IMG/VR virus record: IMGVR_UViG_3300032235_000647
Location: 32,001-96,000 of that record
Direction: 5' to 3' (one strand)
Origin: a virus
Length of the DNA: 64,000 bases
How positions within the stretch are numbered: position 1 is the stretch's first letter; each line of letters starts with the position of its first letter. Made by a program: the position numbers and the translations under genes. Shown piece by piece: positions 34,292 through 58,829 of the stretch. The notes under the pieces were generated by a model. That model made no database searches, was not told the DNA's origin, and was given only the letters and a program-made list of their open reading frames with translations.

Positions 34292-34489
34292 TTATCTCCA
34301 CTTATGGGTTGTTTCTACTTTTTTATTTGTATAAAGGTCTAATTTACCATCTTCGGTAAATTTAACTTCGTAATTTGTTTTTCTTATATCATTATGACCA
34401 CCTTTGTAGGGAGTATCGCCAACTTCTTTTTGGATTTTACCAACATTGATTGTATTCTTGGCCATATAATCTTTTATATCGAATGCCAT
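34292..34489 (-). CDS. Hypothetical head-module protein
   Basis: 65-aa ORF starting 4 nt after the protease stop. Confidence 0.6.
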   Translation of the reverse strand: MAFDIKDYMAKNTINVGKIQKEVGDTPYKGGHNDIRKTNYEVKFTEDGKLDLYTNKKVETTHKWR

Positions 34490-34493: not shown

Positions 34494-35084
34494 TTAGTGT
34501 AATTCTGTTATAATTTCTCTCATCAAGTCTTGTGCTTTGCAGTAATCACCACAAACAACACCCTCTTGAATGTTTTTATTTACTGATTCTTGTAATGGAG
34601 TCATGAACGCACCATGAGTAGATGGATTAGAAACGAAATCCCAACCAATCAATTCAAAGTCATCACCAACTTTTACCTTACCTTCACCTATATTCGTCAC
34701 CGAACCCATACCACGAGATGATATTCCTAATAGAATACCAGCTCTTAATAACTCTTTAAGTATATTTCCTGATGGAGTTGGAAGTATTTCAACGGTACCA
34801 ACCAAATCATCACCATCCCAATGAATTTCTCTTACATTGTGAGAAACATTCTTCAAGTTGATTACAGAAGAATCAGGATGGTCTAACTCGCCCAATGCTC
34901 TTCTTTCTTTAATAAGAGTTTCGTATTTCTTAGCCTCTCTCATTAAGATTTCTCTTGGATATATTCTACCATTTTGGTTTTCTGCACCTGCTCGTTGTAA
35001 AATACCCTTAACGAGAGTTCTTCCACTCGCGTCTTCGTTTATTCTACCTTCAAATAGGTTTGTTTCTATTAGTAATGATTTCAT
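34494..35084 (-). CDS. gp21: Prohead maturation protease, T4 gp21-like
   Basis: NQNGRIYP, ALGELDHP, VSH, GISSRGMGS and DFVSNPS catalytic motifs. Confidence 0.95.
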   Translation of the reverse strand: MKSLLIETNLFEGRINEDASGRTLVKGILQRAGAENQNGRIYPREILMREAKKYETLIKERRALGELDHPDSSVINLKNVSHNVREIHWDGDDLVGTVEILPTPSGNILKELLRAGILLGISSRGMGSVTNIGEGKVKVGDDFELIGWDFVSNPSTHGAFMTPLQESVNKNIQEGVVCGDYCKAQDLMREIITELH

Positions 35085-40322: not shown

Positions 40323-40374
40323 AATAGGGTCTCCTTATACTATAAATATATACTTCTAATAATAACCTATTATT

Positions 40375-41957: not shown

Positions 41958-42377
41958 TTAGTTTACAAGTAATACACCAACTGCTATAACACCAACAATT
42001 GTTCCCACCTTATATAAAAAAGTTTTTCTCTTTTCTGATTTCAATTCCTTTAATAGGGATTCGGATTTTTCTCGTTCTAACTTAAATTGCTCATCTTTCT
42101 GTGTGATGATATAATCCAAATTAGTAATTTTAGAATTGAGAGTCAAAATTATTTCATCTTTAAGTACTAATTTTTGATTTGTTAATGAAAGAACTTTTTT
42201 AGTTTCTTCTAACTCAATGAGTGCACCATCCCCTTTAATTAAATCTTTGATGATTAATTTTGCAGTAGGAATTTTTAGTGCTACAATAGTATCAGTTTGA
42301 GTCTGATTCGTAACGGTCTGTGAAAAACTTGTTAAGGTCACTAAAATTAAACTTATTAACAGAATTAACTTTTTCAT
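41958..42377 (-). CDS. Signal peptide + coiled coil + C-terminal TM protein (spanin-like candidate)
   Basis: MKKLILLISLILVTLTSFS|Q, a heptad-rich middle and a hydrophobic C-terminus; overlaps the upstream gene by 86 nt. Confidence 0.55.
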   Translation of the reverse strand: MKKLILLISLILVTLTSFSQTVTNQTQTDTIVALKIPTAKLIIKDLIKGDGALIELEETKKVLSLTNQKLVLKDEIILTLNSKITNLDYIITQKDEQFKLEREKSESLLKELKSEKRKTFLYKVGTIVGVIAVGVLLVN

Positions 42378-42639
42378 TTGTATTTACCTTTATATTTCTT
42401 ATGTTTGTATTAACTGATGTAATATCAGTATCTAATAACCCAATTTCGGAAGATATGCTATCTATTTTTAAATCTAAATTTTTATTTACAAGTACAACCG
42501 AATCTATATTGTGTTGAATACTATCGATTTTTTGGTTATACATTTCTATATCCGTTTTTAGTTGTTTAGTAGAATAAATACTATATGCCAATAAACATAT
42601 TAAAACCAATAATAGAAACGATACATTTCCATTTTTCAT
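42292..42639 (-). CDS. N-terminal TM + coiled-coil protein (i-spanin-like candidate)
   Basis: Single N-terminal TM followed by heptads; AGGAG SD and late motif upstream. Confidence 0.55.
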   Translation of the reverse strand: MKNGNVSFLLLVLICLLAYSIYSTKQLKTDIEMYNQKIDSIQHNIDSVVLVNKNLDLKIDSISSEIGLLDTDITSVNTNIRNIKVNTNEKVNSVNKFNFSDLNKFFTDRYESDSN

Positions 42640-43311: not shown

Positions 43312-43369
43312 TGTTATACATTAGGTTATACATTATATATAAATATATAAAAATGAATAAAGTGATATT

Positions 43370-46300
43370 TTAAGCGTAAAATATACCTAAAATCTGATTT
43401 AATGAGGCAAATGCACCAGTTAATTTGAAAGTTTTACCTTGATATGTAAAAACTATACCTTCGTTTGGAACAATTTTATCAGCCCCACCGATTGCTTGTA
43501 ATCTTCTCAACTCTAATTTCAATTTTTCAATCTTTTTAGGGTCTCCTGATTTCTCAACTTCCTTAATTGTTTGGTCTAATCTCTTTTTCATGTCTCGAAT
43601 TGCTGCATCAGGGTTTACAGTCAATACTGATGATGTGAATTGTAGAACTTCTGCTCCAACTCCCAAGAAAATATCCTCAAATTTCATTAGGTTTTGTTTT
43701 GTGATTTTAGCTTGGTCTTCTTTATCAGTTGTTAATGCCCAATTTAACACTTTTTCATCAGTTATGTTCTTACTATCAATTCGAAACCCTTTGTCACCAA
43801 ATGCCCATCTCTTGACCAATCCCATTTTGGTTTTATTATCCAACATTGATGGTGATTTTTTGTTAATATAATCATTCCACCATGCTTGATGATACTCAGC
43901 AACACCATCAGTATCTTTCAAACCGAATTCTTTTTGTAATTTTGAGATTTTAGCAGTATATTTTCCTTTTTTAGATGAAAGGTCTTGTGATTTTGGTAAA
44001 AAAAGAACAGGAGGTCCTTGAATTGTGTAATTATCTTGAACATCTTTGTTTATTTGTTTAATCATACCCGCAAGGATTTTTGCTGCTCCTTGATTTTCAC
44101 CTATTGCATTACCTTCATCATCATATTCCATCGTTCCATGGAACACTAATAGTGGTTGTCCGTAAGGAATTACATTGACTGATGTTGGATATATCACTTC
44201 AAGATTCATAAAACAAGCACCATCCTTAAAAATTTTAAATCGTTGGGCTTCTGAAAGTGATTTTATAGCATCGGTGAGGTCTTTCATTGCAAAATTATAC
44301 GCTTTTTCCAATTCACCTCTGCCAGTAAACTTATCTGCCACACCTTTTATGTCTAAAGCACCAGCACCTTTGTTTTTCAAGTGTCCTTTATTACGAGCGG
44401 CAACTAATCTTCCACCTACCCATGAGATTGCAAGGGCTTGACCATCAGTTTTTTCTCGTGCAAGTTCTAAATTTCCATCCAATGCACGATTAACAATATC
44501 TTTTAGTTGTCCAAAAGTTAAATTGATTTCGGTATCAAATGGATGATTCATGTGTCCATACGCACCACCTTCTTTTAAAAGGGATTCTTTAACGGATTGG
44601 TATTTTTTATTCCATACATATTGGAATAACTCACCCCATATAGGTCCATCAATTTTACCATCCCACTCGTAATTATATATAGGTTTACTATTAAATGATT
44701 TGCCAGTTTTATTAAGAGCAGTTCTTCCCAACCCTTTTACATTAGTAGATTTTGGTTTTACTAATTTTTTACCACCCCAAGTTTTTTCGAGTCGTTTCTC
44801 ATCTTTGTAATGTAAAAATAACTGATAACCTCTATTTACATCTTTAACCTTATCCACAATTTTCTGCATGAAATCTTCTACTTTTGGATATTTTTTTAAA
44901 AATGCTTCAACTCTTCTTGGGTCTATATATCTAGCAACTTCTTCTTTTAATTCATAAGTTTTTTTATGAATAGTATCAAGTTGTTTTCTCAACTTTTTCA
45001 TTTCCTTCTCATGATTATCCATCCACGCTTGGTCAGGATATCCATGAGGTGCTAATTCATCTATTTTTTTATTTATTTTTCTGAATTTATCCAATTCTAT
45101 TTCACGAAGTTGTTTTAATGCTTCCTCATAAGTTTCATGGGTACCTAATTTTTCACCACCAGTTTTACGATATACCACCCACTTATTATCTACTTTTTGA
45201 ATTGTTTCTTCTATCTTTTTAAGTTTCGTATAATATTTTGGGTCTTCAAATAGGTGGTCCATTGCTATTTCTTTTGCAATATCAGTATCAGTAGTATGTT
45301 CCCTTTCTACTTTATACCCCTTTTTGAATTCATCCATCAATTCTGAAACTGGGATATTGTGTTTTTTAGCAATATCAGATAAACTCATACCTTGTGATAA
45401 TCCACCTGGTATTTTAGATTCCTTTTTAATTGATTTCGTACTATTCATAAATTCTTGTGGTGATTTAAAATGAGCTTTTAATATACGATTGTATTTAGAT
45501 GTTTTGTTTCCATCACCATGTACCATTAGAGGTATTCCTTGGTCTACTGCTCTTCCTAATTCAAATTTTGATGGAACTTCGTGAACTAATTCAAAACCAG
45601 GTAGGCTTCCTAAATAATATTCTTGGGTATCGTACTCTTCCCAAGAATGATTGTACATATAGCCAGTAGCTCCTGCAGCATCGTTAGGAGTCATTGAACC
45701 CCTGACCCCATCATAAAAACCACTATTGACTTCATCTATTAAATTTTCCGATTCAAAGGATAGAATAGGATCAGATGATTTAAAATCATCCTTTCGCATC
45801 ACCGTTTTTGCAATGGCCTGATTTGCTTGTTTAACAAAAGGAATGTTTATATCATATCTTTTATCTCTAACAACTATTTCTTTATATTTCTCTAAAAATT
45901 CTTTAAATTTATTTTTTATTCTTGATAATCTTTTAAAGAATCCTGTTAATTCAGCATCAGAAATCGGTTTACCATTTCTTGGATCATTTACTCTATCAAA
46001 GAAATGTTGAGTAAACTCAATATCTTGTGGTGATAATTGTTTTTCTGCATATCTCTCAACACCTCTTAATTGAGACATACTCATTTCATTTGTTGGAGTA
46101 TCAAAAGTTAAATTACTTGGATATTGGTTAACCGATTTGAATCTATCTGCTTCCTTTTGCTTTAATGCAGGAAGGAATCTAAATTTGGCAAGTTTAACAA
46201 TTTTTCTTTTCTTTTTTTGAACCATTTGAGATACTCTAGTCTTTTGTGGTAAAGAGAGTTCATTATAAGGAGTCATTCCAAATAATCGTTGAGTCCATTC

Positions 46301-48859
46301 TTTCCTTACATACAAGTAAGCAAGTTTGTATGCTCTTTTATATAAAACTGAATATGGTTTTTTACGAATTTGTGTTCGTTGTTTTTTAATGTTGATTAGT
46401 TTTTTATTTTTTGCAAAACTCCATCTCCTTGCAGCTCTTTGTGCTTGAGTTAAAGCCTCATCCAAACTTTCTTCATCTTCCCACTCTTCTAATTCTGCAA
46501 AATCATACTCTTGTTGCTGAGAATCCCAACCACAAGTGTGACATAAATATGGATGTTCATCTTTTACTTCAAGTTCCCATTCATGTTCACATATTTCACA
46601 TTTAATAGAAGTTCCAGCAATGGATTCCATCATAATTGGATCAGAACCCATCCACTCATTTTTCATCATATTGTCTACTAACTCAACATGAGATTCACCA
46701 GCTAATACAATAGGAATTTTACCTTGTGAAGATAATTCTTTTGTTTTTCTTAACAAATTTACATCTCTGAATTTATTAAAAGATTCTTGTGCAGCATGTA
46801 TTTTTGTTTTCTTATCACCATAATCATCTGCAAAAGATAATCTATATAGAGTATCAACATCTTCTTCAGTTGGATTTGAATCCCATGTATTCGATAAAGG
46901 TAGATTTGCTTCTTGTGCTGATTGTTTTAAAAGTTCTTTACCTTTATCGGTTAAGTAATCTTCAGGTGACATATCTTCTACACTATCACCTTGTCCTATC
47001 ATACTTGCCCAATTGGCAGCCATGACTTCTTCATTACTTAATCCAGTTTCTTGTTCTTGGTATTTGTATAGTGGAGATTCATTATCAAATACACTTGTCT
47101 CGTCACCATCCCATGTATCAATTCCTGCACCAATTTTTTGGAATTTCTTTGCAGCATAATCCATTTCGCCACCAAATTCCAACTCACCCTCATCATTACC
47201 CATTCCACCTTCACCTACAAACACAACGTCTTTCCATCTATCTTGTGGTATAGTTGATTTTACTTTATCAAGTATATCATCAACCATTTTTTTATTTCCA
47301 TGAACGGTTCCAAATACTTGCCCACCACCTTCAAGTTCGGTTGTTTGAATTTCCTTACCTGATTTAGCTCCTTGAAATGTATTTACACCTGATTTAGGTT
47401 GTTGTTTTTTAGCAGGATCACTTGATGGTAGTGAATCCTTATATCCACTATCTTTTGAAAAAATATTTTGTTTTGGTTTATTTTCAGGTGTAGAATCACC
47501 ACTCTCTATTGGAGTGTATTTACCACTATCATCTTTTTTAAAAATAGGAGCAGAAGAATCTTTTTCTTTACCTTTTTCCTTATATCTACCATACCCAATA
47601 TGGGTATATTTTTCATCTTCTTTATCGGCCTCAAAGAAAACTTGCTTTCCTTCCTTAACCAATCTGAATGTGACAACTTTTTTGCCATTTATAGTTGGCA
47701 TCCCGTGTTCGTCTTTACCGATTGTTTTTACAACTACTTTTTTATTTTTGAATTTACCCATCAATAGAGTATCTCCAATTTCAACTGGTAACGTGATTGA
47801 TTCCTTAACAACCTTTTTATCAGATTCTTTTGAAAGTTCTCTAGCACCTTTAGCAAGTTGTGTTGAAAGTTTATCATCAACATTTAATGCTTTATCAACT
47901 ACTGAATAACCAACTAATGATGCAGTACGAGTCACGTGTTTATACCACTTATCATAAGCACCATTTACCATTACATCAAATTCACCCATTGGGTCTTTTT
48001 TACCAATAGCACCTCTTGGAAAAAATGTAACTCTACCACTTGGTCCTTCTGGGTATGTAATATAATCATCCATTGAATCATCCATAACCATATTGATTAT
48101 TTCCCATCCAATTTGTTGAGCTCTTTCGCCGTTGATGACTTTAAACGAATTATAGTCCGGTAAGAAAATAACAGGACCATCATCAACCATATCTTGGCCA
48201 AATCCAGATGATACTTCTATGAGTAAATCTTCAAGTTGTGTTTTAGATAATCTGATACAAGATTCTTGTAACTTATTTGTAATAAGGTTGAATATTGTTT
48301 TGTTGAATTTAGAATATGCTCTATCTACAAAAAAGTTCTTTTTTTGTTCTTCACTTCCACTTCCCAATCCAATTCTTACTTCGGTTCCACTTACTCCTCC
48401 GCCACCCTCAGGTGCCACATAAATATATCCCTTATCTTTATATCCTTCGGTTGGGTTACCATCCCACTTTGCAAAATATTTACCACCCAATCTACTTGCA
48501 TCTTTTTGGCCAACTACGGTTACAAAAGCAGTAGTTTTTTCATCAAACTTTTTTAGGATTTCGGTAGGTGCATAAGGATTCTTGACCTCGTATATTTTGT
48601 TTGATGGAACACCAAACATCGTGGTCATAATTTGTTTTTTCTCCTTAAAATTAAATGGAGATTTTGGTTTTTCTACTTTATCAGAAGTTCCTATAAATAC
48701 ATTATCTTTTCCGAACTTACTAACTAAATGTGAATAAGTTGCATAATGACCTTTATGAAAAGGTTGAAATCTACCTGCATAAATGACTACTGTCTTTTTT
48801 ATGGGGGTAGATTCCTCTAATAATATTTGTTCTACTAAATATCTTGAAAGTTCGTTCAT
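43370..48859 (-). CDS. Giant multidomain protein: N-terminal HxGH nucleotidyltransferase, many small inserted domains, C-terminal ligase-like (KxDG) domain
   Basis: YAGRFQPFHKGHY; CEICEH/CHTCG zinc finger; EREHTTDTDIAKEIAMDHL module; GGAYGHMNHPFD...EKTDGQAL...EGIVF...KLTG. Confidence 0.75.
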   Translation of the reverse strand: MNELSRYLVEQILLEESTPIKKTVVIYAGRFQPFHKGHYATYSHLVSKFGKDNVFIGTSDKVEKPKSPFNFKEKKQIMTTMFGVPSNKIYEVKNPYAPTEILKKFDEKTTAFVTVVGQKDASRLGGKYFAKWDGNPTEGYKDKGYIYVAPEGGGGVSGTEVRIGLGSGSEEQKKNFFVDRAYSKFNKTIFNLITNKLQESCIRLSKTQLEDLLIEVSSGFGQDMVDDGPVIFLPDYNSFKVINGERAQQIGWEIINMVMDDSMDDYITYPEGPSGRVTFFPRGAIGKKDPMGEFDVMVNGAYDKWYKHVTRTASLVGYSVVDKALNVDDKLSTQLAKGARELSKESDKKVVKESITLPVEIGDTLLMGKFKNKKVVVKTIGKDEHGMPTINGKKVVTFRLVKEGKQVFFEADKEDEKYTHIGYGRYKEKGKEKDSSAPIFKKDDSGKYTPIESGDSTPENKPKQNIFSKDSGYKDSLPSSDPAKKQQPKSGVNTFQGAKSGKEIQTTELEGGGQVFGTVHGNKKMVDDILDKVKSTIPQDRWKDVVFVGEGGMGNDEGELEFGGEMDYAAKKFQKIGAGIDTWDGDETSVFDNESPLYKYQEQETGLSNEEVMAANWASMIGQGDSVEDMSPEDYLTDKGKELLKQSAQEANLPLSNTWDSNPTEEDVDTLYRLSFADDYGDKKTKIHAAQESFNKFRDVNLLRKTKELSSQGKIPIVLAGESHVELVDNMMKNEWMGSDPIMMESIAGTSIKCEICEHEWELEVKDEHPYLCHTCGWDSQQQEYDFAELEEWEDEESLDEALTQAQRAARRWSFAKNKKLINIKKQRTQIRKKPYSVLYKRAYKLAYLYVRKEWTQRLFGMTPYNELSLPQKTRVSQMVQKKKRKIVKLAKFRFLPALKQKEADRFKSVNQYPSNLTFDTPTNEMSMSQLRGVERYAEKQLSPQDIEFTQHFFDRVNDPRNGKPISDAELTGFFKRLSRIKNKFKEFLEKYKEIVVRDKRYDINIPFVKQANQAIAKTVMRKDDFKSSDPILSFESENLIDEVNSGFYDGVRGSMTPNDAAGATGYMYNHSWEEYDTQEYYLGSLPGFELVHEVPSKFELGRAVDQGIPLMVHGDGNKTSKYNRILKAHFKSPQEFMNSTKSIKKESKIPGGLSQGMSLSDIAKKHNIPVSELMDEFKKGYKVEREHTTDTDIAKEIAMDHLFEDPKYYTKLKKIEETIQKVDNKWVVYRKTGGEKLGTHETYEEALKQLREIELDKFRKINKKIDELAPHGYPDQAWMDNHEKEMKKLRKQLDTIHKKTYELKEEVARYIDPRRVEAFLKKYPKVEDFMQKIVDKVKDVNRGYQLFLHYKDEKRLEKTWGGKKLVKPKSTNVKGLGRTALNKTGKSFNSKPIYNYEWDGKIDGPIWGELFQYVWNKKYQSVKESLLKEGGAYGHMNHPFDTEINLTFGQLKDIVNRALDGNLELAREKTDGQALAISWVGGRLVAARNKGHLKNKGAGALDIKGVADKFTGRGELEKAYNFAMKDLTDAIKSLSEAQRFKIFKDGACFMNLEVIYPTSVNVIPYGQPLLVFHGTMEYDDEGNAIGENQGAAKILAGMIKQINKDVQDNYTIQGPPVLFLPKSQDLSSKKGKYTAKISKLQKEFGLKDTDGVAEYHQAWWNDYINKKSPSMLDNKTKMGLVKRWAFGDKGFRIDSKNITDEKVLNWALTTDKEDQAKITKQNLMKFEDIFLGVGAEVLQFTSSVLTVNPDAAIRDMKKRLDQTIKEVEKSGDPKKIEKLKLELRRLQAIGGADKIVPNEGIVFTYQGKTFKLTGAFASLNQILGIFYA

Positions 48860-48904
48860 AATATGATATACTTCATCAGTATATAAATATGAAGTATATA
48901 AAGT

Positions 48905-49033: not shown

Positions 49034-50465
49034 TTTCTAATAATTTATTAAGGTTATTAACATAAGTATCTGAAATATATTCTTCACTCATTGAAAGTAA
49101 ATGATTTCTATTGTATTCTAATATCGGATATAATTTTTCATATAATTCATCCCATTCTTCATTTGTTTTTTCTACTAATGATTTTACTACTTCATATACT
49201 TTTATAATCCTTTCAGAATTATTTTGTATAGTATCATAAGATTCATCCCAAAACTCTGAAAAAGTTTTGAATCCCCATTTTTGTAGTTGATTTATTATAC
49301 CTGGCTTACCCAATATTACAAATGGATGTAAGTGAGCAATTCCTTTAAATGTTTTTTCCGAAATATAATGTCCATGTTCGTAAAATAAAGTTTCGGTTAT
49401 TAAACTAAAATATGTGTTTAAGTATGGTTCTTTCTGTTCAAATCCAAATCCCCAAACTTTTCCAATATTATCATAATCAATTATATTCTTTGGATTTTTA
49501 CTTAATTTAAAATACCCACCAATCATTTTAGATTTATATTGTTTATTTTGAATATATGAAACACCATCATAATCGGTACCATTTGCCAATTCTAATCCCA
49601 TATCGTCAAGACCATAATCCCATAATGTCAAATCAATCGAGTACTCACATTCTTTTAACAAACCATCAGTTTGAAGTAAACTTAAAATAATTACTCTATG
49701 TGGTGCAACTCTTCTATTATATATTAAACATTTTTTTGGTTTATTTTTTGTATTCTTTAATTCATTTAGATTCATTAAAGAACATTCATTTGCATTTCCA
49801 TTAAATTCAAATACTGAATCTGTACTTAACAAATGTTCGGTCTCTTTTTTCTTAGCAGTTACTGACCAGCAATAATACGCAGTATAAAATTGTTCTGATT
49901 CTAAATTATTTTTTAAATACTCTTCGTAAATATCACGAGTATTCATTGATGAAGATATTACAATAACTTTTTTTGGTGGTATATCTAATTCTTTACATTT
50001 TTTATGCAAATTTTCAAATAAAGAGTTTCTTATATCACCTTCACTACTATAATCCACAACTAAATAAAAATTAGTAGCATTTCTTAAATATTTTTTAGCA
50101 ATTTCAGATATAAAATCAAATGAATGTGTATGTTCATGATAATTTGTATTTTTACCAGTACAAGTATCAATACTACCATACGGATGAACTGTCATTAAAA
50201 ATAATGATTTATCCATTGAGTTTTCAAGAATTTTTTCATTCTCATCATATCTTACATCTGATATGTGTAAATCATTTAAACTCAATGGTAAATTCAAATT
50301 ACATTCATATACAGGTACTTGAACGTATTTTGAATTAAAAGTTTCTATAAAATTGTGATTAATCACAAAATTATTATTCCAAATATCATCAGTAAAATTC
50401 CAATTCCACCCAGTAGGAACAAATCCAGCAGGTCCCACTACATCAAATAATCTTTTAATTTTCAT
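48999..50465 (-). CDS. Putative glycosyltransferase-like protein (paralog 1)
   Basis: YNRR...HR and FSLITET...ISEKTFK...HPFVILG...GFKTFSEFWDESYD, reminiscent of the GT10-like 'xTEK' motif. Confidence 0.5.
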   Translation of the reverse strand: MKIKRLFDVVGPAGFVPTGWNWNFTDDIWNNNFVINHNFIETFNSKYVQVPVYECNLNLPLSLNDLHISDVRYDENEKILENSMDKSLFLMTVHPYGSIDTCTGKNTNYHEHTHSFDFISEIAKKYLRNATNFYLVVDYSSEGDIRNSLFENLHKKCKELDIPPKKVIVISSSMNTRDIYEEYLKNNLESEQFYTAYYCWSVTAKKKETEHLLSTDSVFEFNGNANECSLMNLNELKNTKNKPKKCLIYNRRVAPHRVIILSLLQTDGLLKECEYSIDLTLWDYGLDDMGLELANGTDYDGVSYIQNKQYKSKMIGGYFKLSKNPKNIIDYDNIGKVWGFGFEQKEPYLNTYFSLITETLFYEHGHYISEKTFKGIAHLHPFVILGKPGIINQLQKWGFKTFSEFWDESYDTIQNNSERIIKVYEVVKSLVEKTNEEWDELYEKLYPILEYNRNHLLSMSEEYISDTYVNNLNKLLENEPNQENYSLF

Positions 50466-51003
50466 AATATAATTCAGGATATTCTACTAAAATAATTGGT
50501 CCATTTGATGATAATGCTTTTTTATATGCAGGAAGAATTTTATCAGCTGAATCCAATTTTATAATGGGAATATGTTTTAACATTGAAGAAAATTCATCAG
50601 AATAATCTGCCTTATGTTGATGGCCAGGATCCAATGGTTTATCAGAACCCTTTCCTACTCTAATGATTACATTTGGAATAAATTGACCATCTGACATTGA
50701 TTCAAGTTTATCCAAATGATTTATTAATTGGTTTGATGCACAAATAAGAAAATCCCATCTTGGATAAAATGATACTACACGATGACCTGTCATGGCCAAC
50801 CCAATACTCATACCCATCTGAGTTTCCTCCATTACTGGAGTTTCAATCATTCGTTCTTTTGGTAACCCTTCAATAGTTTTACTCATTGGGTTTCCATAAT
50901 ATACAATTTGTTGGCCAATAAAAATTGTGGAAGGGTCTTCCATGCACAATTTCATTGATTCTGTCAATGCATCTAAATACGGTGTATATTGTGGTGAACT
51001 CAT
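50455..51003 (-). CDS. TPP-dependent enzyme beta subunit (transketolase/E1-beta pyrimidine-binding domain)
   Basis: FIGQ, IETPVMEETQMGMSIGLAMTG and NQLINH. Confidence 0.85.
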   Translation of the reverse strand: MSSPQYTPYLDALTESMKLCMEDPSTIFIGQQIVYYGNPMSKTIEGLPKERMIETPVMEETQMGMSIGLAMTGHRVVSFYPRWDFLICASNQLINHLDKLESMSDGQFIPNVIIRVGKGSDKPLDPGHQHKADYSDEFSSMLKHIPIIKLDSADKILPAYKKALSSNGPIILVEYPELYYEN

Positions 51004-51995
51004 TATGGTCTTGAATTTGGATTATACTGATGTTTGTTTTCTTTATACCACTCAAGTGTTTCTTTAAGTGCCTGTTTCAAATCTCTTTTAGGTTTCCAAC
51101 CTGCTGTATTTATTTTCTTTGATGATAATAAACGAATCGGAATCATTGGTGCCTTATTATTTACATAAGAAATAGGATTATCATTTCCTTCTATTTCTTT
51201 AATCCATCCCAACACTTCATTTACACTAAATCCTTCACCATACGCAACATTAAAGATATTATATGTATCGTTGTTTTCGGCAACCCAAATGAACCCATCT
51301 GCCATATCTTCAACATGAAGTAAATCTCTAACTTCAGAGCCATCACCCCATACTGGAATTGGATTTAATCCATCAGCAACTTTACGAATATTTGCAGGAG
51401 TAACATGACATTTTTCGAAATCAAATTTATCGTTTGGTCCAAATGCATTTGAAGGTCTAACAATCAAACACTGCATTGGATTGTGAATTTGGTGTGAAAA
51501 ATAATCACAAAGTAATTCACCATATCGTTTCATATTACCAACTGCTCCATAAATTGGAAAAGTTGGAGTTGCGTGAATGTTTATATCTTCGGTACAAAAC
51601 TCATCCTTCATATCAGGATAAACGGTATTAGATGAAATGAATAGAAATTTCTTTACTCCATTTCTCCAACTTTGTTCCATAAGATTTACATTCATTTCAA
51701 CATTAGGTGTTACATGAAGTAATGGATTTTCTTTTGTATCTAATGCGTTAGATGTATTTGCTGCACAATGAAATACAACATCTACATCCTTTGTAACATT
51801 TTCACAAAAAAACTTTGTCTGCAAATCACCTTGAAAATGGTGTACTGATTCCCATCCATCAAAATCACCTCTTAAATCTCTTGAAAAAGAAGTTGATCTT
51901 AAATTTCTATAACCTTTTTCCCAAAGTAATCGCAGTAAATGTGAACCAATGAATCCACTTGCACCCGTAACTAAAATAGTATCTGTTTTTTTCAT
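51003..51995 (-). CDS. NAD-dependent NDP-sugar epimerase/reductase (GDP-fucose synthase-like)
   Basis: VTGASGFIGSH, RPSNAFGPND and VWGDGSEVRDLLHVED. Confidence 0.85.
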   Translation of the reverse strand: MKKTDTILVTGASGFIGSHLLRLLWEKGYRNLRSTSFSRDLRGDFDGWESVHHFQGDLQTKFFCENVTKDVDVVFHCAANTSNALDTKENPLLHVTPNVEMNVNLMEQSWRNGVKKFLFISSNTVYPDMKDEFCTEDINIHATPTFPIYGAVGNMKRYGELLCDYFSHQIHNPMQCLIVRPSNAFGPNDKFDFEKCHVTPANIRKVADGLNPIPVWGDGSEVRDLLHVEDMADGFIWVAENNDTYNIFNVAYGEGFSVNEVLGWIKEIEGNDNPISYVNNKAPMIPIRLLSSKKINTAGWKPKRDLKQALKETLEWYKENKHQYNPNSRP

Positions 51996-51998
51996 AAC

Positions 51999-52964
51999 TT
52001 ATTTTTTATACTCATTTAAATAATAATCAATTGTTTGTTTTAATCCTTCTTTAAGGGATACTTGTTGAATAATACCAAATGATTCTGCTCTTTCGGTACT
52101 CATCAATCTTTTTGTATCGCCGTTTGGTTTTGTTGGGTCCCACTCAATATCCACTTTAACTCCATACATTTCTTCGTAGATTTCTACAAGAGTTTCTGCA
52201 AGTTCTTTGATTGTTACACCAGTTCCACTACCCAAATTAATTGGTTGTGTTAATTTTTGTTCGTACGCCTTAATAATTCCATCGGCAATATCACCTGCAT
52301 AGATAAAATCTCTAATAGGTGAACCATCTCCCCAACATACCAATGGATGTTCTTTTTCACCAAACAATCTTTTAATAAGTGATGCAATTACGGTTGATTC
52401 AGGTCCAAAATTATCGTGTCTACCATAAATGTTAGCAGGTCTTACAATTGACGCCTTATTCCAGTCATAAGATACTGAATAAACTTCTGCTTGTAATTCA
52501 CCTAGTCTCTTTGCCCATCCAGCATATTTATCTTTTTCCGATGGGAAAGTTTTCCAAACATCATCTTCATAAAATACTTCTGCTGGTTGATAAACTCCAA
52601 CCGTTGAAGTGTATACATACCATTCAACATCTTCCAATCTTGCTGCTTCCATCATATTGGTGTTGAATTGTAACATTGGTACAAAATAATCTGCAGGTTG
52701 CTCCATTGCTCTTTTCGGAGAACCCTTTACACCTGCAATATGAAAAATTATTTCTTGTCCTTTTACAACTTGTTTACACGAATCAAATTCTCTCAAATCT
52801 GCCTTGATAAACTGATAATTACCATCTTTATACTTTTCAACTTGATTCATTGGTTCGTGGATATCCACTGCTGTTACAAGTGCACCTTTATCGATACACT
52901 TTTGAACCATATAATTACCAACTAATCCATTGGCACCTGTTATTAAAACCTTTTTACCTTCCAT
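51999..52964 (-). CDS. NAD-dependent NDP-sugar epimerase/reductase
   Basis: ITGANGLVG, RPANIYGRHDNF and WGDGSPIRDFIY. Confidence 0.85.
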   Translation of the reverse strand: MEGKKVLITGANGLVGNYMVQKCIDKGALVTAVDIHEPMNQVEKYKDGNYQFIKADLREFDSCKQVVKGQEIIFHIAGVKGSPKRAMEQPADYFVPMLQFNTNMMEAARLEDVEWYVYTSTVGVYQPAEVFYEDDVWKTFPSEKDKYAGWAKRLGELQAEVYSVSYDWNKASIVRPANIYGRHDNFGPESTVIASLIKRLFGEKEHPLVCWGDGSPIRDFIYAGDIADGIIKAYEQKLTQPINLGSGTGVTIKELAETLVEIYEEMYGVKVDIEWDPTKPNGDTKRLMSTERAESFGIIQQVSLKEGLKQTIDYYLNEYKK

Positions 52965-52999
52965 TTTCTTATTTTATATATACATATATGTTTTTATTT

Positions 53000-54124
53000 T
53001 TATATTGGTTTCCTACCATCGTTTTTAATTAAATCAGTAAAATTTGATTGAATATAAATTTTATTAAATTTATATAAACGATTTACTTCATCAACAAAAT
53101 TATGATATTCATTATGCTCCTCCATCCAAACTGCTTTACGTGTAAATGATTCATAATCCATGTGAGTCCATTGATATATTTTACCAAAATAAACAAGAGT
53201 TGCTTCGGAGTATTGTTGTTTCTGAATTCTATTTTCAAATTTTTTGTAAATCAATTCAGCAAACTCCCTCATTTCTTTGTAATTATCTAATTGAGTAACA
53301 AATGAACATCTTAAATTTTGTATAGTCGGTATAGTACTAATAAAATCTAAATTCTCCATTAAAACTTCCCAATTACCACCAATTCTTGTTTTATTTTCGT
53401 AGGTATCTTTTGTAGCAGCATCTATTGATATTTCTACTGATTTAACATACGGATGTGCCTTTTCTATCCTCTTCCAATTCTTTTCATTAAATAAATTGGC
53501 ATTAGTTGTCAAATAAATATCATCCAAATTTGGCCATAATTTTGGGTCAAATTCAAATAAAAATTTTCTAAATGATTTTGATGCCCAAGGGTCACCACTA
53601 CCTGTTATTGCTAATTTTCTTGCTTCTTTTGAATAGTTATTTTTTATAAAATCAGTTATATTATCAATTTTTATAATTTCATTTGGTTTTGCCATTATAA
53701 CGTGTAATCTACATGATGGACATTTTAAATTACAACTATCATCATAAGTAAAATTAATTGAACCAGGTCCTGAACTTATATTTTTGTCATCTACTACAAA
53801 TCCATCATGCATTTTAAATGGTAATTTTTCTTTTTCTACAAAAAATCCACTTGCTTTTTGAGTGTTTATCAATGTACTTAAATGAGGACAGGCAGTTTTA
53901 TGACAATGTGAATACGAACCATCTAAAACAGATTCTCTGATTTTATTTGCAGTTTCAGATTTCCAAACATCGTAATTTAATGTACCATCTTCATTTTTAC
54001 CATACCATAATTTTGTTTCCAACCAAGTTGGACAACATAATGTTGCATGGTCTTCAAAAAATTCTATATGTTTGAATGGTTGAATACAAATATATTTTTT
54101 AAGAATGTCTTCTTTATTTTTCAT
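53000..54124 (-). CDS. Radical SAM protein with N-terminal SPASM/twitch-like Cys cluster
   Basis: CNLKCPSC and ITGSGDP; N-terminal CIQPF...LCC...C. Confidence 0.85.
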   Translation of the reverse strand: MKNKEDILKKYICIQPFKHIEFFEDHATLCCPTWLETKLWYGKNEDGTLNYDVWKSETANKIRESVLDGSYSHCHKTACPHLSTLINTQKASGFFVEKEKLPFKMHDGFVVDDKNISSGPGSINFTYDDSCNLKCPSCRLHVIMAKPNEIIKIDNITDFIKNNYSKEARKLAITGSGDPWASKSFRKFLFEFDPKLWPNLDDIYLTTNANLFNEKNWKRIEKAHPYVKSVEISIDAATKDTYENKTRIGGNWEVLMENLDFISTIPTIQNLRCSFVTQLDNYKEMREFAELIYKKFENRIQKQQYSEATLVYFGKIYQWTHMDYESFTRKAVWMEEHNEYHNFVDEVNRLYKFNKIYIQSNFTDLIKNDGRKPI

Positions 54125-54125
54125 G

Positions 54126-55247
54126 TTACAGATTTTTAAAAAACAAACTTATACCATCCATTTTCATTTGATTAAAATGATTTTTATTATATATACAAAT
54201 TTCTTTTGTTTGCTGGTATAGTTCATTTAGTTTATTTATATCATATGAATTTAATTTTAAAACCACTTCAGAAATTTTAAAATATCTTTCTCTAGGCTCA
54301 AATATTGTATCATATGATTCATCCCAAAATTTTGAAAAGGTTTTAAATCCCAATCTTTTTAACTCTTTAAGATAGTTACAAGGCCCAAAAACTATAAATG
54401 GTTGATAATTTAAAATCGGTTTTAAAATCTTTTCTGATATAAACAATTCGTTATTTACATACGATGATTCAGTTACCAAATGAATACACGAATTTAAAAA
54501 TAAATCTTTCCGCATAGTATTGTTAACAGTAAAATTAAAATTTTTATTTGTATCCAACTCTATCGGAATATGTTTTATATATTCTTCTACTTGTAATTTC
54601 TGTTCTTGAAAAGGAAAACAATGTATTCCTTCAAATGTTAAAAAACTAAAATACGAATCACTAAAATCATTTGTTAAATAATCATGTAATAATGAATATC
54701 TGTGTTCTTTATCTACCGTTCTATTAAACGATAAAAATTTTTTACTTCTAAATTTATTTAGTTCATCTAATGATATCTCTTCACTTTTGTATCCCAAATC
54801 AGTTTTAACATTAAAAAATGAATTTTTATGATTGATTGCATCTTCAAGAAAAAAATGATAAGAATATACATTTCTTTCTTGCAAATTTACATTACTAGTT
54901 AAGAATATACATCTATGTAAAATTCCATGCTTTTTTAATTTTAAAGCTAATTTTCTATATCTTTCAAACGGTGGTGCGTCTGCAATAGAACATAATATTA
55001 TTTTTAAATCATGTTCTTCTATAAATTTTTTAATATCTACTTTTCGTAAAATAGCATCAATTCTCTTTTCAAGAGCATGATACATTTCAGTAGGCTCTAT
55101 CAATATGTAATTTTTATAATCTGTTTTAATATTTGGAAATTGTGTACACGAATATTCATTTATGACCTTTTGAGTCATAGGTCCTTCGAAACACCACTTT
55201 CCATAATTTGATTCAGGTGGTAAAATAAAATTTAAAAAACTACCCAT
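54126..55247 (-). CDS. Putative glycosyltransferase-like protein (paralog 2)
   Basis: FLSFNR...HR and LVTES...ISEKILKPI...PFIVFG...GFKTFSKFWDESYD. Confidence 0.5.
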   Translation of the reverse strand: MGSFLNFILPPESNYGKWCFEGPMTQKVINEYSCTQFPNIKTDYKNYILIEPTEMYHALEKRIDAILRKVDIKKFIEEHDLKIILCSIADAPPFERYRKLALKLKKHGILHRCIFLTSNVNLQERNVYSYHFFLEDAINHKNSFFNVKTDLGYKSEEISLDELNKFRSKKFLSFNRTVDKEHRYSLLHDYLTNDFSDSYFSFLTFEGIHCFPFQEQKLQVEEYIKHIPIELDTNKNFNFTVNNTMRKDLFLNSCIHLVTESSYVNNELFISEKILKPILNYQPFIVFGPCNYLKELKRLGFKTFSKFWDESYDTIFEPRERYFKISEVVLKLNSYDINKLNELYQQTKEICIYNKNHFNQMKMDGISLFFKNL

Positions 55248-55870
55248 TTTCCCGTCCCATAATGTGGGTATTTAGATTTATATTTATAATAAATTACATC
55301 ACTTGGTATTTCTCTCTGAATGCCACCCCATGTATATGATGTTGGTGTATTGGTTGAAACTTCGTTATCTTCTACTACAAAATATAGTGGTAAATTGAAA
55401 TTTCTTGCGTATTTATGAACTTCATAAAAGAATCCAGTTTCAAAAGTCATGTCACCAATAAAACACCAAACTTTTTCATCACTACCTTTTAGTTTTATTG
55501 ATTTTGCAACTCCAAGTGCAATAGGTAATGTACCTGTTACAATTGCAGACGAATAAAAATTAGATTCTTTATCTACGATAGTTATTGATTTTCCATCAAG
55601 AATTTTTTCTTTTAATGTAGATGGTTTAACTCCGTGAAGAAGTGCATGATAATGAGATCTCCAAGTTGAAAATACCCAATCGGTTGGCGATATTTTTTTG
55701 AATACTTCAATAAGTTGTTCTTCATTTCCATTTGATAAATGAATAGGTCCTTTTATTTCTCCTTTTTCCCAATGAGAAATAATATCATCTTCAAAATGAA
55801 TAAGTTCTTCCTTATTCCAGTTACCATCCAACCATCGGTCTTCATGATAATTTAAATTTTTAATTTCCAT
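55232..55870 (-). CDS. TPP-dependent enzyme alpha subunit (E1-alpha-like)
   Basis: GPIHLSNGNE, STWRSHYHAL and the TPP-binding GDMTFETG...VVEDN. Confidence 0.85.
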   Translation of the reverse strand: MEIKNLNYHEDRWLDGNWNKEELIHFEDDIISHWEKGEIKGPIHLSNGNEEQLIEVFKKISPTDWVFSTWRSHYHALLHGVKPSTLKEKILDGKSITIVDKESNFYSSAIVTGTLPIALGVAKSIKLKGSDEKVWCFIGDMTFETGFFYEVHKYARNFNLPLYFVVEDNEVSTNTPTSYTWGGIQREIPSDVIYYKYKSKYPHYGTGKWVVF

Positions 55871-56444
55871 TTTTATCTCTTTTTGACAAGATTGGGTTTT
55901 CGGTTGGCCAATCTATATTAAATCTTGAATCGTTCCATACAATAGTATGTTGTTTATTTTCATCATTATATTCACCCTCGTATGCCATTTTATATGAGAA
56001 AATGGAATCATCTTCCATTACAAAATGTCCATTTGCAAAATAAGGCGGAACAAGAACTTGAGTTCCAGTTTCAGGTGAGAGAATAAATGATTCCCATTTA
56101 CCAAAATCAGGTGTTTTTTCTCTTACATCTAAAACTACTAAATAAATTCTACCGTGTGGACACGAAACTAATTTCCAAGTTTTTTCATCCCAATGTAAAC
56201 CTCTAAGAACACCTTTTTTAGATTTAGAATATCTATCATGTTTAAATGCTAACCCATCATTTCTATCGGCTGCTGGTAGTAATCTATCGTAATAGTCTGA
56301 ATGATAGGTTGTTGATATTGAACCACGAATTTCGTGATAAATTGATGGTTGTACAATTTTTACTTGTGGTAAAACCGACCCATTATAAAAATGAAAATCG
56401 TTCCAACTTCTTTCTTTATAAAATATACTACGTCCTTGTGCCAT
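55860..56444 (-). CDS. rmlC: dTDP-4-dehydrorhamnose 3,5-epimerase family protein
   Basis: SKSKKGVLRGLH, KLVSC, VLVPPYFANGH and WP...PILSKRD. Confidence 0.9.
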   Translation of the reverse strand: MAQGRSIFYKERSWNDFHFYNGSVLPQVKIVQPSIYHEIRGSISTTYHSDYYDRLLPAADRNDGLAFKHDRYSKSKKGVLRGLHWDEKTWKLVSCPHGRIYLVVLDVREKTPDFGKWESFILSPETGTQVLVPPYFANGHFVMEDDSIFSYKMAYEGEYNDENKQHTIVWNDSRFNIDWPTENPILSKRDKNGN

Positions 56445-57396
56445 AACCTAATGGAAATCCATTTCTATATTTTGATGATAAATCTTGTATTAAAATTGTG
56501 TAAGTTTTTATAAGTTCGTCAATACCATCATCTAAACTCCAATCAGGATTCCATCCAGTAGATTCTAGTTTGGCATTTGAAACTAAATAATCTCGTTTAT
56601 CAGGGTCTTGGTAAAAATCAGAATAAGTGATTGCAAAATCAGGAACAAATTCTTTAATTTTTTCTACCAATTGAGCTTTTGTTAAATTTGCAGATGTCAA
56701 CCCTACATTAAATACTTCACCTTGAAATTTTTCGTAATTTTCTATCATATATTCAAATGTTTTTGCAACATCTCGGATATGAATGTAATTTCTTTGAAAA
56801 TTTTTCTCAAAAATAGTGATGTATTTATCAGTTAATGCTTTGTAAACAAATTCGTTTACCAACAAATCCATTCTCATTCTTGGAGATGAACCAAATACGG
56901 TGGCAAGTCTTATTGAAATGCCACCGATATTAAGAACCTCTCTCTCGGCTTTAACTTTGGTCACTCCATAGTGTGATATAGGGTTAAGTGGACTTTCTTC
57001 AGTACACTCACCATTCTCGCCTATCCCATACCCACTATTTGTATTTGGATATATTACTTTTATATCAGTACCTCTAACTAAATCACAAATGGTTTTTACA
57101 TGAGTATAATTTACTGCAGTTGCTAAATCTCTATCTCTATCACATGCAGGAAATCCTACAATTGCAGCTAATGGAATTATAACATTAAAAGTTGGTACTA
57201 GTTTTTCTAATAAACTAGTATCTCTAACATCACCATAAATAAAATGGAATCTTTTATTATAAGAGTAATGAATTAGGGATGTTTGATTATACATCAAATT
57301 ATCTAATACGGTAACTTCGTGACCACTATCAAGTAGTCTATCTACCAACACCGAACCGAGGTATCCTGCCCCTCCTGTAATTAGTACTTGTTTCAT
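56428..57396 (-). CDS. NAD-dependent epimerase/dehydratase
   Basis: ITGGAGYLGS, YGVTK (YxxxK) and RLATVFGSSPRMRMDLLVN. Confidence 0.9.
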   Translation of the reverse strand: MKQVLITGGAGYLGSVLVDRLLDSGHEVTVLDNLMYNQTSLIHYSYNKRFHFIYGDVRDTSLLEKLVPTFNVIIPLAAIVGFPACDRDRDLATAVNYTHVKTICDLVRGTDIKVIYPNTNSGYGIGENGECTEESPLNPISHYGVTKVKAEREVLNIGGISIRLATVFGSSPRMRMDLLVNEFVYKALTDKYITIFEKNFQRNYIHIRDVAKTFEYMIENYEKFQGEVFNVGLTSANLTKAQLVEKIKEFVPDFAITYSDFYQDPDKRDYLVSNAKLESTGWNPDWSLDDGIDELIKTYTILIQDLSSKYRNGFPLGYGTRT

Positions 57397-58829
57397 AATA
57401 TATGGGTTTCGTGTAATATATTTTCAAAGAAATTTTTAATTTCTCTTTTTTCGGTGGATAATTTATGTAATAACTTTTGATTATGTATTAATATTTCTTG
57501 CATCTCTTCTAATAATACAATCCATTCATCATCGGTTTTATTACACAAACTAATTACTAAATTTAATAGTAAATCTGTTCTAGTTTTAAAATCTTTGATG
57601 TTATCATACGATTCATCCCACCATTTATCAAAAGTTTTAAATCCATGTGATTTTAAAACATCTAATGTATTTGGATTACCCAACACTACAAATGGATGAA
57701 GATTCATTATTGGTTTAATTGTTTTTTCAGTTAAAAATGAATACGGAGATTCTGCATTAGTTTCTGAAATTATTGTAAAATATGAATTTTCATATTCATC
57801 TTTTCTACTAAGAAAATTATGATATTCTGCTACTCTGTCTGGATTATCATCATCGATTACTAAAGGATAATAATTTTTGTAATTCTTTTTTATATCTAAT
57901 GTGTCCTCTTGTGTTAAACCCAATGGTGGATATTCCTTTTCTTCATTTAAAAATTTTACAAAATGTGAATTTTCTAAAAAAGAGATAAATCCTTTATCCA
58001 ATAAATTATTTTTATATAGTAAATTTAGAAAATAAGCTCTATGCATCCTTTCCGAATTTCTATTATACATTAAGAACTTTTTTTGTTTTTTATTAAATTT
58101 TAATTCAGTTTGAAATGAATAATCATAGCCATCTTGCTGTATTAAGTGAGTTGACCCACTTCGTAGTATACTCATAAATCTACCAGCAGATGTTATCAAA
58201 TAATTATTTGGAAATACACTAATTTGATTTTTAAATTTTGGAAATTTTTTAGAATGTTTTAACTTTATAATATTATTGTTGTTGGTAGAAATATAAACTT
58301 TATCCGTATGATTTATATCATTTCTTTCTAAAAATTTATGTATTTTTTCTAAAAAACTTATATTATGCATATACGCCCCTTCACCAGAATCTACAAAAAC
58401 TATTTTAAAATTTGTATTATTTTTTATTAGATTTAATAAATCTGGTGAAATCATATCTTCTATTACTATCTTATCGGAAGAATAGTATTCAAACATATTA
58501 TTAACATTCAGGCTTTCAAAAACTACCAAATATAAATTATTAGATTTTATATTATCTTTAATATCTTTTGTTAAAACAAATTCAGTATTTTTTGTATATT
58601 GTGTAACATAATTTGAAAATTCAGAACTTGTATTATAAAAAAAATGAGTAGGGTCATGAACCGATGCGTAATAACCAGTAAATTGTTTATCATTTGGATT
58701 TTGCAATTTGTATTGCATCATAATTGGTAGTGTATATTTTGTATACCCTAATGGTATGTATCCACCTGGCCCTTTAAAATCTAAAACAAAATAAGTTTTT
58801 GGAATTTTATTTAAATTGAATCCATCCAT
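57393..58829 (-). CDS. Putative glycosyltransferase-like protein (paralog 3)
   Basis: FLMYNR...HR and IISET...LTEKTIKPI...HPFVVLG...GFKTFDKWWDESYD. Confidence 0.5.
   Translation of the reverse strand: MDGFNLNKIPKTYFVLDFKGPGGYIPLGYTKYTLPIMMQYKLQNPNDKQFTGYYASVHDPTHFFYNTSSEFSNYVTQYTKNTEFVLTKDIKDNIKSNNLYLVVFESLNVNNMFEYYSSDKIVIEDMISPDLLNLIKNNTNFKIVFVDSGEGAYMHNISFLEKIHKFLERNDINHTDKVYISTNNNNIIKLKHSKKFPKFKNQISVFPNNYLITSAGRFMSILRSGSTHLIQQDGYDYSFQTELKFNKKQKKFLMYNRNSERMHRAYFLNLLYKNNLLDKGFISFLENSHFVKFLNEEKEYPPLGLTQEDTLDIKKNYKNYYPLVIDDDNPDRVAEYHNFLSRKDEYENSYFTIISETNAESPYSFLTEKTIKPIMNLHPFVVLGNPNTLDVLKSHGFKTFDKWWDESYDNIKDFKTRTDLLLNLVISLCNKTDDEWIVLLEEMQEILIHNQKLLHKLSTEKREIKNFFENILHETHIL

Follow-up and report, generated by a model that had tools for sequence, protein, structure and literature searches.

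Within a 64,000-nt stretch of phage DNA (positions 32,001 to 96,000 of IMG/VR virus record IMGVR_UViG_3300032235_000647; this whole stretch is called the window below), one open reading frame (ORF) of the minus strand, 43370..48859, encodes a protein of 1829 amino acids (aa) in which a nucleotidyltransferase-like N-terminal domain and an RNA-ligase-like C-terminal domain are held apart by a chain of smaller modules. The best-supported reading of this protein, and on balance a probable one, is that of a cargo polyprotein, which would be loaded into the phage head, cleaved there and injected into the next host; its packaging, its cleavage and every one of its activities are what we infer. The reading is carried by an N-terminal leader laid out like the capsid-targeting sequence (CTS) of T4, by a prohead protease of the T4 gp21 family encoded nearby, and by motifs of the form hydrophobic-x-Glu (h-x-E), which are conserved in the leader and at most of the seams between modules.

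The gene and its setting

The window, with 32% G+C and nearly all of its genes on the minus strand, is a portion of a 130-kb virus record that is estimated to be ~65% complete. The polyprotein frame, to which an earlier note on this DNA (a model's reading of the letters) had drawn attention, lies on the minus strand and is open throughout its 1829 codons under translation table 11; the open frame, which contains no Hint domain, rules out an intein or recoding behind its length. The gene stands between sugar-modification genes and the terminase, in the late head/packaging module. Downstream come three small ORFs and then, in order, the large terminase, Portal_T4, the Peptidase_S77 protease, an acidic scaffold-like ORF, the Gp23-type major capsid protein and tail-fibre genes; Peptidase_S77, Gp23 and Portal_T4 are all three detected within the window. 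The closest capsid proteins, at 53-55% identity, belong to Flavobacterium phage immuto, Microcystis phage Mel-JY01 and an uncultured 484-kb phage; that of Rhodothermus phage RM378 comes next (40%). The source is probably a distant T4-like myovirus, and the 1829-aa gene its cargo polyprotein gene.

That the protein is delivered in the virion had been proposed in the earlier note. The genomic side of the proposal holds, the gene lying in the late head module next to the terminase; the packaging side is an argument from analogy with T4, for which the CTS-like leader, the Peptidase_S77 protease and the motif in the capsid propeptide speak. The two features that matter most here are (a slash marks the boundary after Glu):

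48815..48859, minus strand: leader, residues 1-15 (MNELSRYLVE/QILLE/), with two L-x-E sites; candidate capsid-targeting sequence
34494..35084, minus strand: prohead protease, Peptidase_S77 (T4 gp21 family; Pfam E 2.6e-27, phrog_207 E 1.3e-50)

Leader and seams

In T4, gp21 cleaves after L/I-x-E, and the CTS is ~10 aa long, its residues 4 and 7 serving targeting and its residues 8 and 10 processing (PMC9026906); the sequence of the T4 CTS is printed in PMC8442874. The leader of the polyprotein matches this layout, with Leu at position 8 and Glu at position 10. Among relatives, leader-like sites precede the GRFQP motif in 137 of 148 unique N-termini, counting those with a Met start and the GRFQP motif within the first 80 residues. 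Elsewhere in the window, a [LI]xE ending at residues 7-17 is found in 11 of 18 head-module ORFs and in 1 of 20 other ORFs (Fisher p 2.4e-4; the scaffold ORF was taken from its internal Met, a post hoc choice), and the capsid propeptide contains five L/I-x-E-type sites, the last of which is LDE/A at residue 61.

The earlier note had also claimed a modular build with Glu-ending seams, and both homology breakpoints and seam conservation bear it out. Each of the nine boundaries that it named (E353/S, E410/A, E745/S, E801/A, E925/M, E1043/V, E1147/S, E1218/T and E1430/G) falls in a cluster of at least five BLAST alignment ends against relatives, and extra seams appear near residues 199, 403, 494, 1036 and 1303-1306. 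When 259 long relatives are compared all-against-all, Glu is three times enriched at alignment ends, and 32-38% of breakpoints have an h-x-E no more than 4 residues away, as do 13% of positions picked at random. For single seams, unique upstream contexts in relatives were scored as exact (h-x-E in register) or near (within 3 residues), with 60 positions as controls (1.1% exact, 13% near); since the relatives are not independent, the counts are descriptive and are not probabilities:

E1430 (LKE/G): exact 221/254
VKE/S, tandem site just before E1430: 110/239
E353 (VKE/S): exact 103/128
E925: exact 52/89
E410: exact 38/54, near 49/54
E745: near 41/44
E199: near 88/110
E801: near 36/48
E1043: near 21/38
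E1218: near 10/19
E1147: near 15/59, weak or absent
E1306: near 7/22, weak or absent
E1036: exact 0/44, near 6/44, weak or absent; dropped as a seam on these counts

Both of the seams that were modelled with AlphaFold2 (AF2) are segments of low confidence, and therefore probably flexible.

The terminal domains

48263..48814, minus strand: residues 16-199, NMNAT-type HxGH nucleotidyltransferase domain (Pfam CTP_transf_like), ending LQE/S
43373..44569, minus strand: residues 1431-1829, RNA-ligase-like covalent nucleotidyltransferase domain (motifs, AF2 fold)

The N-terminal domain had been called a class I nucleotidyltransferase, and so it appears: Pfam CTP_transf_like (PF01467) matches residues 26-118 with 26.5 bits against a cut-off of 21, and the nearest PDB sequence is the NMNAT 2qjt (E 4e-4). 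GRFQPFHKGH occupies residues 29-38 (HKGH, 35-38), and VSGTEVR, residues 156-162, is what we take to be the second motif of the HxGH class. With NMN adenylyltransferases of the NadM/NadR type the domain shares a Pfam score above the cut-off and a GRFQPFHKGH identical to the motif region of 2qjt; it differs in having no Nudix partner, and although the NCBIfam NMNAT models do match it, the best score among them, 29.6 bits (NF003787), comes nowhere near the equivalog cut-off of 449. By sequence, then, it is an HxGH nucleotidyltransferase of NMNAT type, the low equivalog scores leaving its substrate unproven. It aligns with residues 26-211 of the Mel-JY01 homologue (5926-7845), in which GIHH replaces HKGH, with loss of the first His of HxGH, while the KxDG and EG..K motifs of the other end are intact; the N domain of Mel-JY01 may therefore be inactive.

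The ligase-like domain that had been claimed at the C-terminus is upheld by its motifs and by its predicted fold. EKTDG (residues 1469-1473, 44441-44455), EGIVF (1800-1804) and KLTG (1812-1815) are all present. When the last 416 residues are aligned with 25 homologues that are 38-93% identical to the window sequence, K1470, D1472 and G1473 of motif I (KxDG) are invariant in 26/26 sequences, and they are kept in Mel-JY01 too. E1554, F1573/H1574, E1800-G1801 and K1812 are likewise invariant (26/26 for E, H, E-G and K); the model places them on strands, and they succeed one another as do what we take to be ligase motifs III, IIIa, IV and V. In motif V one Lys is invariant, where K-x-K would be usual; a conserved GGAYGHMxHPFD segment stands ahead of motif I; and in the AF2 model (mean predicted local distance difference test, pLDDT, 88) a helical insert of ~200 aa separates motifs IIIa and IV. 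In a VIA structural comparison with 48,161 chains, the eight that rank highest are without exception RNA ligases (Z 7.5-8.1, 175-202 residues aligned, root-mean-square deviation 3.9-4.9), namely chains of REL1, T4 Rnl2, NgrRnl, Trl1 and T4 Rnl1. Foldseek with the AF2 model, the check that the earlier note had suggested, also puts RNA ligases in its top rows, though at E values of 1e-2 to 5e-2. In one relative (P0330, 1245 aa) the K of motif I is followed directly by an intein (Intein_splicing/Hint, residues ~740-878), and the TDG resumes right after it; we read this as a sign of a conserved working site.

Several results weigh against this assignment. A VIA Z of ~8 is, by the tool's own note, typical of best matches generally; Foldseek of the C-domain model returned nothing at E<=0.001; a PDB profile search with the C domain found no ligase (a match of the profile to ribosomal protein eS6 was discarded as low-complexity); and the Pfam RNA-ligase families matched none of the 26 members at E<=10. 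An hhalign comparison with T4 Rnl1 pairs EKTDG with KEDG and NLEV with NFEF, in an alignment that is weak (probability 0.9%, E 0.058). Neither an AAA_33 kinase nor NAPRTase/Nampt nor PolyA_pol (CCA) was found in the 130-kb record, so that an end-healing partner for tRNA repair is missing here; the record being ~65% complete, the absence of partner enzymes is not thereby shown.

Taken together, motifs and model indicate that the C domain is ligase-fold and RNA-ligase-like. We keep it outside the described RNA-ligase families because no Pfam or PDB profile recognises it and because of its ~200-residue helical insert. It has the same nucleotidyltransferase fold, with motifs I, III, IIIa, IV and V in the same succession, as T4 Rnl1 (gp63; with Pnkp) and fungal Trl1, which are heal-and-seal ligases of tRNA, and as Rnl2/REL1 and NgrRnl; its relatives join it to a P-loop kinase and an HD phosphoesterase much as Trl1 unites ligase and kinase (PDB entry title 'Trl1-LIG-KIN'). 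It differs from these enzymes in carrying the IIIa-IV helical insert in place of a C-terminal accessory domain, in the lack of a Pfam RNA-ligase match, in its single-Lys motif V and in the GGAYGHMxHPFD segment.

What would such a domain do? Of the functions offered for it, RNA repair is favoured, because relatives carry modules for healing and sealing RNA ends (kinase, HD, CCA). It might instead be another covalent nucleotidyltransferase: a DNA ligase, an NAD+-dependent ligase coupled to the NMNAT, a capping-type enzyme, or an AMPylase of proteins or nucleic acids. We consider this unlikely, if seriously to be reckoned with. DNA ligases match the model structurally as well (ASFV, Pmar-Lig, archaeal; Z 5-6.7); the NAD-dependent DNA_ligase_aden is the sole Pfam family to match more than one member (2/26, best E 0.034, a weak hint); the NMNAT domain is the commonest partner of the C domain; and the phage record yielded no end-healing enzymes. 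Against these stand the eight best structural matches, all of them RNA ligases, the agreement in register with T4 Rnl1, and the kinase, HD and CCA modules fused in relatives, which are RNA-end enzymes.

The modules in between

The polyprotein has ~13 modules. Those between the terminal domains are (all minus strand):

47801..48262: domain 2, residues 200-353, ends VKE/S; after the NMNAT domain in most relatives (125 sequences, conserved DDGP motif)
47651..47800: small module, 'KOW-like' in the earlier note, residues 354-403, ends VKE/G; common to ~119 relatives
47378..47650: Lys-rich 'YTHIGYGRYKEKGKEKD' (YTHIGYG) module and linker, residues 404-494, after FFE/A; two more copies in a 929-aa ORF
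46625..47377: putative TIKI/ChaN-superfamily hydrolase, residues 495-745, ends MME/S; AF2 fold, invariant His/Glu
46457..46624: Cys4 zinc-ribbon module, residues 746-801, ends LDE/A
46085..46456: basic helical module, residues 802-925, ends TNE/M; homology blocks in relatives
45731..46084: 'IEFTQHFFDRVNDPRN' module, residues 926-1043; phrog_23027 / phrog_14518, 106 sequences
45419..45730: module, residues 1044-1147; 33 sequences
45206..45418: DUF5661 (PF18905) module, residues 1148-1218, ends IEE/T; Pfam 1162-1218, E 3e-15, 56.8 bits vs cut-off 27
44570..45205: two modules, residues 1219-1306 (phrog_3684) and 1307-1430, ending in the tandem VKE/S, LKE/G; homology, PHROGs

The names that had been given to these modules from the letters fare unevenly. 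The Cys4 zinc finger is visible as CxxC-x17-CxxC at residues 753-776, and the 'EREH...DHL' module is DUF5661 (residues 1162-1218); 'KOW-like', for which there is no Pfam match at E<=1, is abandoned. The 'IEFTQHFFDRVNDPRN' module is a stand-alone gene in many phages, gene 190 of immuto being related to it. In the model, the segment 1219-1430 has a pLDDT below 50.

The YTHIGYG module recurs twice in a neighbouring head-module ORF, each copy directly following a leader-like L-x-E. This second modular protein (31500-34301, minus strand; 929 aa from an internal Met, Met5) starts MRLKNLLLE/A; the leader is followed by a YTHIGYG module like residues 411-470 of the polyprotein, and the module is repeated after an internal ..KSTRLTSILKE/. 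The same KSTRLTSILKE is the N-terminus of a small ORF (31236-31487, minus strand). Leader, repeated module and shared KSTRLTSILKE together make this look like a second chain of leader-led units in the window.

Residues 495-745 are probably a third enzyme, a hydrolase of the TIKI/ChaN type, to judge tentatively from the model. It has a mean pLDDT of 91.4 and a parallel beta-sheet core with flanking helices; ChaN (2g5g, Z 7.4, 165 residues aligned) and HopBA1 (5t09, Z 6.1) are among the longest VIA matches, and H520, E550, E565, E722 and H724 are invariant in the module's alignment. ChaN and HopBA1 are members of the TIKI superfamily with a 2His/2Glu site (PMC6254334), and the phage module, in which two His and no fewer than two Glu never vary, may resemble the TIKI/ChaN/erythromycin-esterase superfamily in this respect. 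It differs in that its Z is only 6-7.4, in being outranked by FolC and in lacking a Pfam match. (The FolC C-terminal domain, first in the VIA ranking with Z 8.8, covers only 97 residues and was set aside as a generic Rossmann-like alpha/beta match.) Foldseek found nothing at E<=0.001, its top row being a Tetrahymena complex IV subunit and the next rows histidine-acid phosphatases, and an ESM Atlas search with residues 505-745 returned only unnamed viral clusters of 245-276 aa. A homologue search limited to proteins of 132-422 aa gave 109 matches, many of them module-sized. The module could be a peptidase. One of its stand-alone homologues (P0480, 365 aa) has an N-terminal extension with an HExxH-like AHELCHH, possibly a zincin peptidase. 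The 'two-enzyme system' of the earlier note is supported, as far as fold and family go, for both of its end enzymes and too narrow in leaving out the variable cargo between constant ends and this probable third enzyme.

Shuffling in relatives

Across relatives the modules are shuffled, absent, or present as stand-alone genes, and sequence comparison indicates that the two ends are a constant frame around highly variable cargo. The C-domain family comprises 1789 representative clusters at 50% identity; among the best 150 of these, the domain reaches the C-terminus or comes near it in 148, in proteins of 206-1930 aa. In 682 long relatives the module sets of the middle region differ (GNAT, HD, PolyA_pol, DUF5661, ROS/MucR-type zinc fingers). 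Pfam scans of 38 representatives give two instructive arrangements: one relative (P0266) strings together CTP_transf, DUF5661, an AAA_33 P-loop kinase, HD, a PolyA_pol (CCA) head and the C domain, and in another the C domain is fused to a Zeta/AAA_33 kinase. At the minimal end, in Microcystis phage Mel-JY01, N and C domains are joined directly in a protein of 639 aa, a few genes upstream of the terminase. In a 95%-identical relative the C domain is a separate 414-aa protein; for a 1155-aa N-terminal part the longest contig recorded has an identical length (15,689 bases), from which we take the two to be on one contig.

Some fused relatives contain, in frame, a copy of the leader of the stand-alone gene (MIRLKK..LKE/GG; ..ESIE-MIRLKKILKEVLLKE/GG), which shows that genes have been fused and split where leaders begin or end. 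Ahead of TerL, at the corresponding place in the cultured phage immuto, the genes are separate, and 9 of the 14 listed have leader-like N-termini; gene 190 combines DUF5661 and the IEFT module in reversed order, behind MKKSQLRQIIKE/, and a 907-aa 'NadR' gene lies nearby.

How the polyprotein might work, and other explanations

The steps that can be envisaged for a cargo polyprotein are these: 1) The leader would load the chain into the prohead core, as the T4 CTS does for IPI-III and Alt. 2) The Peptidase_S77 protease would cut it in trans, after Glu at the seams. 3) The freed proteins would remain in the head, enter the host along with the DNA, and act ahead of any phage gene expression. 4) The ligase-like enzyme would then seal broken RNA (tRNA) ends, the NMNAT-like enzyme would make NAD or a related dinucleotide, and the TIKI-like module would hydrolyse a host or phage target.

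A bolder version of this scheme can be put forward tentatively, as a possibility below even chances. In an entire lineage of T4-like phages of aquatic habitats, the h-x-Glu linkers may be universal in-frame connectors, with which any small gene can be plugged in, swapped or split off in the space between a constant NMNAT-like head and a constant ligase-like tail; whatever is inserted would be loaded, freed and injected, so that a counter-defence payload, hypervariable and made in advance, would reach the host. The two constant enzymes may also be linked in a cofactor loop: an NAD+-using ligase would release NMN, and the NMNAT domain would regenerate NAD+ from it. Such a loop would keep repair going in a host that had destroyed its NAD+.

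Certain observations tell against a cargo polyprotein. The h-x-E motif is short, with 36 occurrences in a Glu- and Lys-rich protein; the seams at E1147, E1306 and E1036 are weak or absent in relatives; TNE/M and KKE/S lack a hydrophobic residue at P3, and the 494/495 seam has no site at all; and a leader is lacking in 20 of the 35 stand-alone forms of the TIKI-like module that were counted (the count left out the GVxH group, whose members show MIKL..LKE leaders). The non-independence of the relatives has been mentioned with the counts.

These same points (a short and common motif, seams that do without it, stand-alone forms that are often leaderless) are what might be expected of a giant multidomain enzyme that is made late, stays unprocessed in the cytoplasm and is not packaged, its Glu seams being flexible acidic linkers left by gene fusions. 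We think this explanation improbable. It is opposed by the conservation of an N-terminal leader with the spacing of the T4 CTS, by the concentration of the same motif in head-module ORFs and the capsid propeptide, by seam conservation far above the controls even where the flanking modules differ, and by the place of the gene between sugar-modification genes and terminase, with a late-type motif upstream.

Alternatively, the chain might be loaded and cleaved as an accessory of the assembly core or scaffold, its pieces being degraded or expelled and its enzymes playing no part in the next host. T4 offers a parallel in its core proteins gp22, gp67 and gp68, which undergo cleavage at this motif and are then lost from the head (PMC9026906), and the Lys-rich YTHIGYG module does recur in a neighbouring head-module protein. 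The invariance of catalytic residues in the ligase-like and TIKI-like modules among sequences 38-95% identical, the intein in motif I, and the kinase, HD, CCA and GNAT enzymes of relatives imply that the enzymes are kept for their activity, as is T4 Alt, and make this second alternative quite improbable.

That the long ORF is an assembly or sequencing artefact fusing separate genes, as the existence of the C domain as a gene of its own in close relatives might suggest, is scarcely credible, given that at least four other proteins have the identical junction (..WGELFQYVWNKKY..ES..EGGAYG; P0223, P0239, P0217 and others), that the full sequence is present letter for letter in the Atlas, and that hundreds of relatives of 1000-2130 aa are built alike.

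Relation to known systems

A cargo polyprotein would have its closest counterparts in the internal proteins of T4: IPI, IPII, IPIII and Alt, which bear a CTS, are processed by gp21 and are ejected together with the DNA. Common to both are the Peptidase_S77 protease and the capsid and portal families, a leader of ~10 aa whose position 8 is hydrophobic and whose position 10 is Glu (PMC8442874), and the L/I-x-E motif, at which cleavage is documented for T4 (PMC9026906) and would be presumed for the polyprotein. The T4 cargo, an NAD-linked enzyme (Alt) and anti-defence proteins (PMC9026906), is also similar in kind to what the polyprotein would carry. The difference lies in the organization: T4 cargo proteins are encoded by separate genes and each is cut once or twice, whereas the polyprotein unites about a dozen modules in a single frame, most of its seams bearing a site, and the module set varies from phage to phage. 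Pfam and PHROGs searches found no homology of the modules to IPI-III or Alt.

The other comparison is with the polyvalent proteins of Iyer et al. 2017 (PMC5512222). These too have many unrelated domains (2-15) in a chain and are encoded near late, portal or terminase genes. The proposal made for them is that they are packaged, accompany the DNA on delivery and are divided into units, which embedded peptidases (MPTase, sometimes assemblin-like) release (PMC5512222). Its authors saw their 2H domains in no association with RNA ligases. Two things set the present protein apart: its release would be effected in trans by the head protease, and its constant parts are NMNAT-like and RNA-ligase-like enzymes. 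Neither MPTase nor the polyvalent signature domains (ART, MuF, DarB-like and others) were found in the polyprotein with Pfam and PHROGs. (A 'cytidylyltransferase' of one cyanophage paper proved to be an unrelated TagD.) The literature searched, a limited library, yielded no published description of such a polyprotein architecture and no paper on Mel-JY01.

Should the cargo reading be correct, the T4-style smuggling of a few small proteins would have been enlarged, in aquatic phages, into a modular delivery of enzyme kits, and a very common one, the ligase-like domain alone accounting for those 1789 clusters. The RNA-ligase-like enzymes, with the unusual helical domain inserted in them, would then make up a new family, and there would be a natural catalogue of candidate injected counter-defence proteins, each module between two protease sites being a candidate. 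Anyone wishing to load T4-type capsids with several proteins together would also have a design rule, leader plus h-x-E joints. The reading lends itself to a direct test in Flavobacterium phage immuto and Microcystis phage Mel-JY01, both of which are cultured relatives.

The upstream motif and neighbouring genes

48882..48889, minus strand: promoter-like octamer TATTTATA (as read on the gene strand), 30 nt before the ATG

The earlier note had placed a late motif upstream of the polyprotein gene. A recurrent motif is indeed found there, 30 nt before the ATG; it reads TATTTATA, not TATAAATA as in T4. The octamer occurs 24-60 nt upstream of 12 minus-strand genes, the polyprotein gene and 11 others, most of which head groups of structural genes (further sites are, for example, 43338-43345, 40341-40348, 26727-26734 and 9055-9062). 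The T4 late promoter TATAAATA was rejected for this gene, since the gene strand reads TATTTATA and the count of TATAAATA in the window (20 found, 15.2 expected) is not above chance. Of its 20 matches, 17 are on the plus strand; only the strand and position of the motif are striking, not its overall count. The octamer is therefore put forward as no more definite a thing than a candidate late promoter, differing from that of T4, its promoter function being surmised from sequence.

Directly upstream of the polyprotein gene, genes of sugar and cofactor type form a block at 50455-63814 (minus strand). It comprises three NAD-sugar epimerases, two radical-SAM proteins, a gene like that of a dTDP-dehydrorhamnose epimerase, and two proteins of glycosyltransferase family 7, one of them with a laminin-G domain. 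Adjoining the terminase on its upstream side are two small overlapping ORFs (41958-42377 and 42292-42639, both minus strand) that have hydrophobic, signal- or membrane-like N-termini (MKKLILLISLILVTL.. and MKNGNVSFLLLVLICLL..) and no family match in Pfam or PHROGs. Just downstream of the capsid gene region there is an HNH endonuclease gene (25486-26019, minus strand; phrog_20891, E 4.5e-21), and inside the head module, at 29751-29999 (minus strand), a phage homologue of ribosomal protein bS21 (Pfam Ribosomal_S21, E 1.4e-12).

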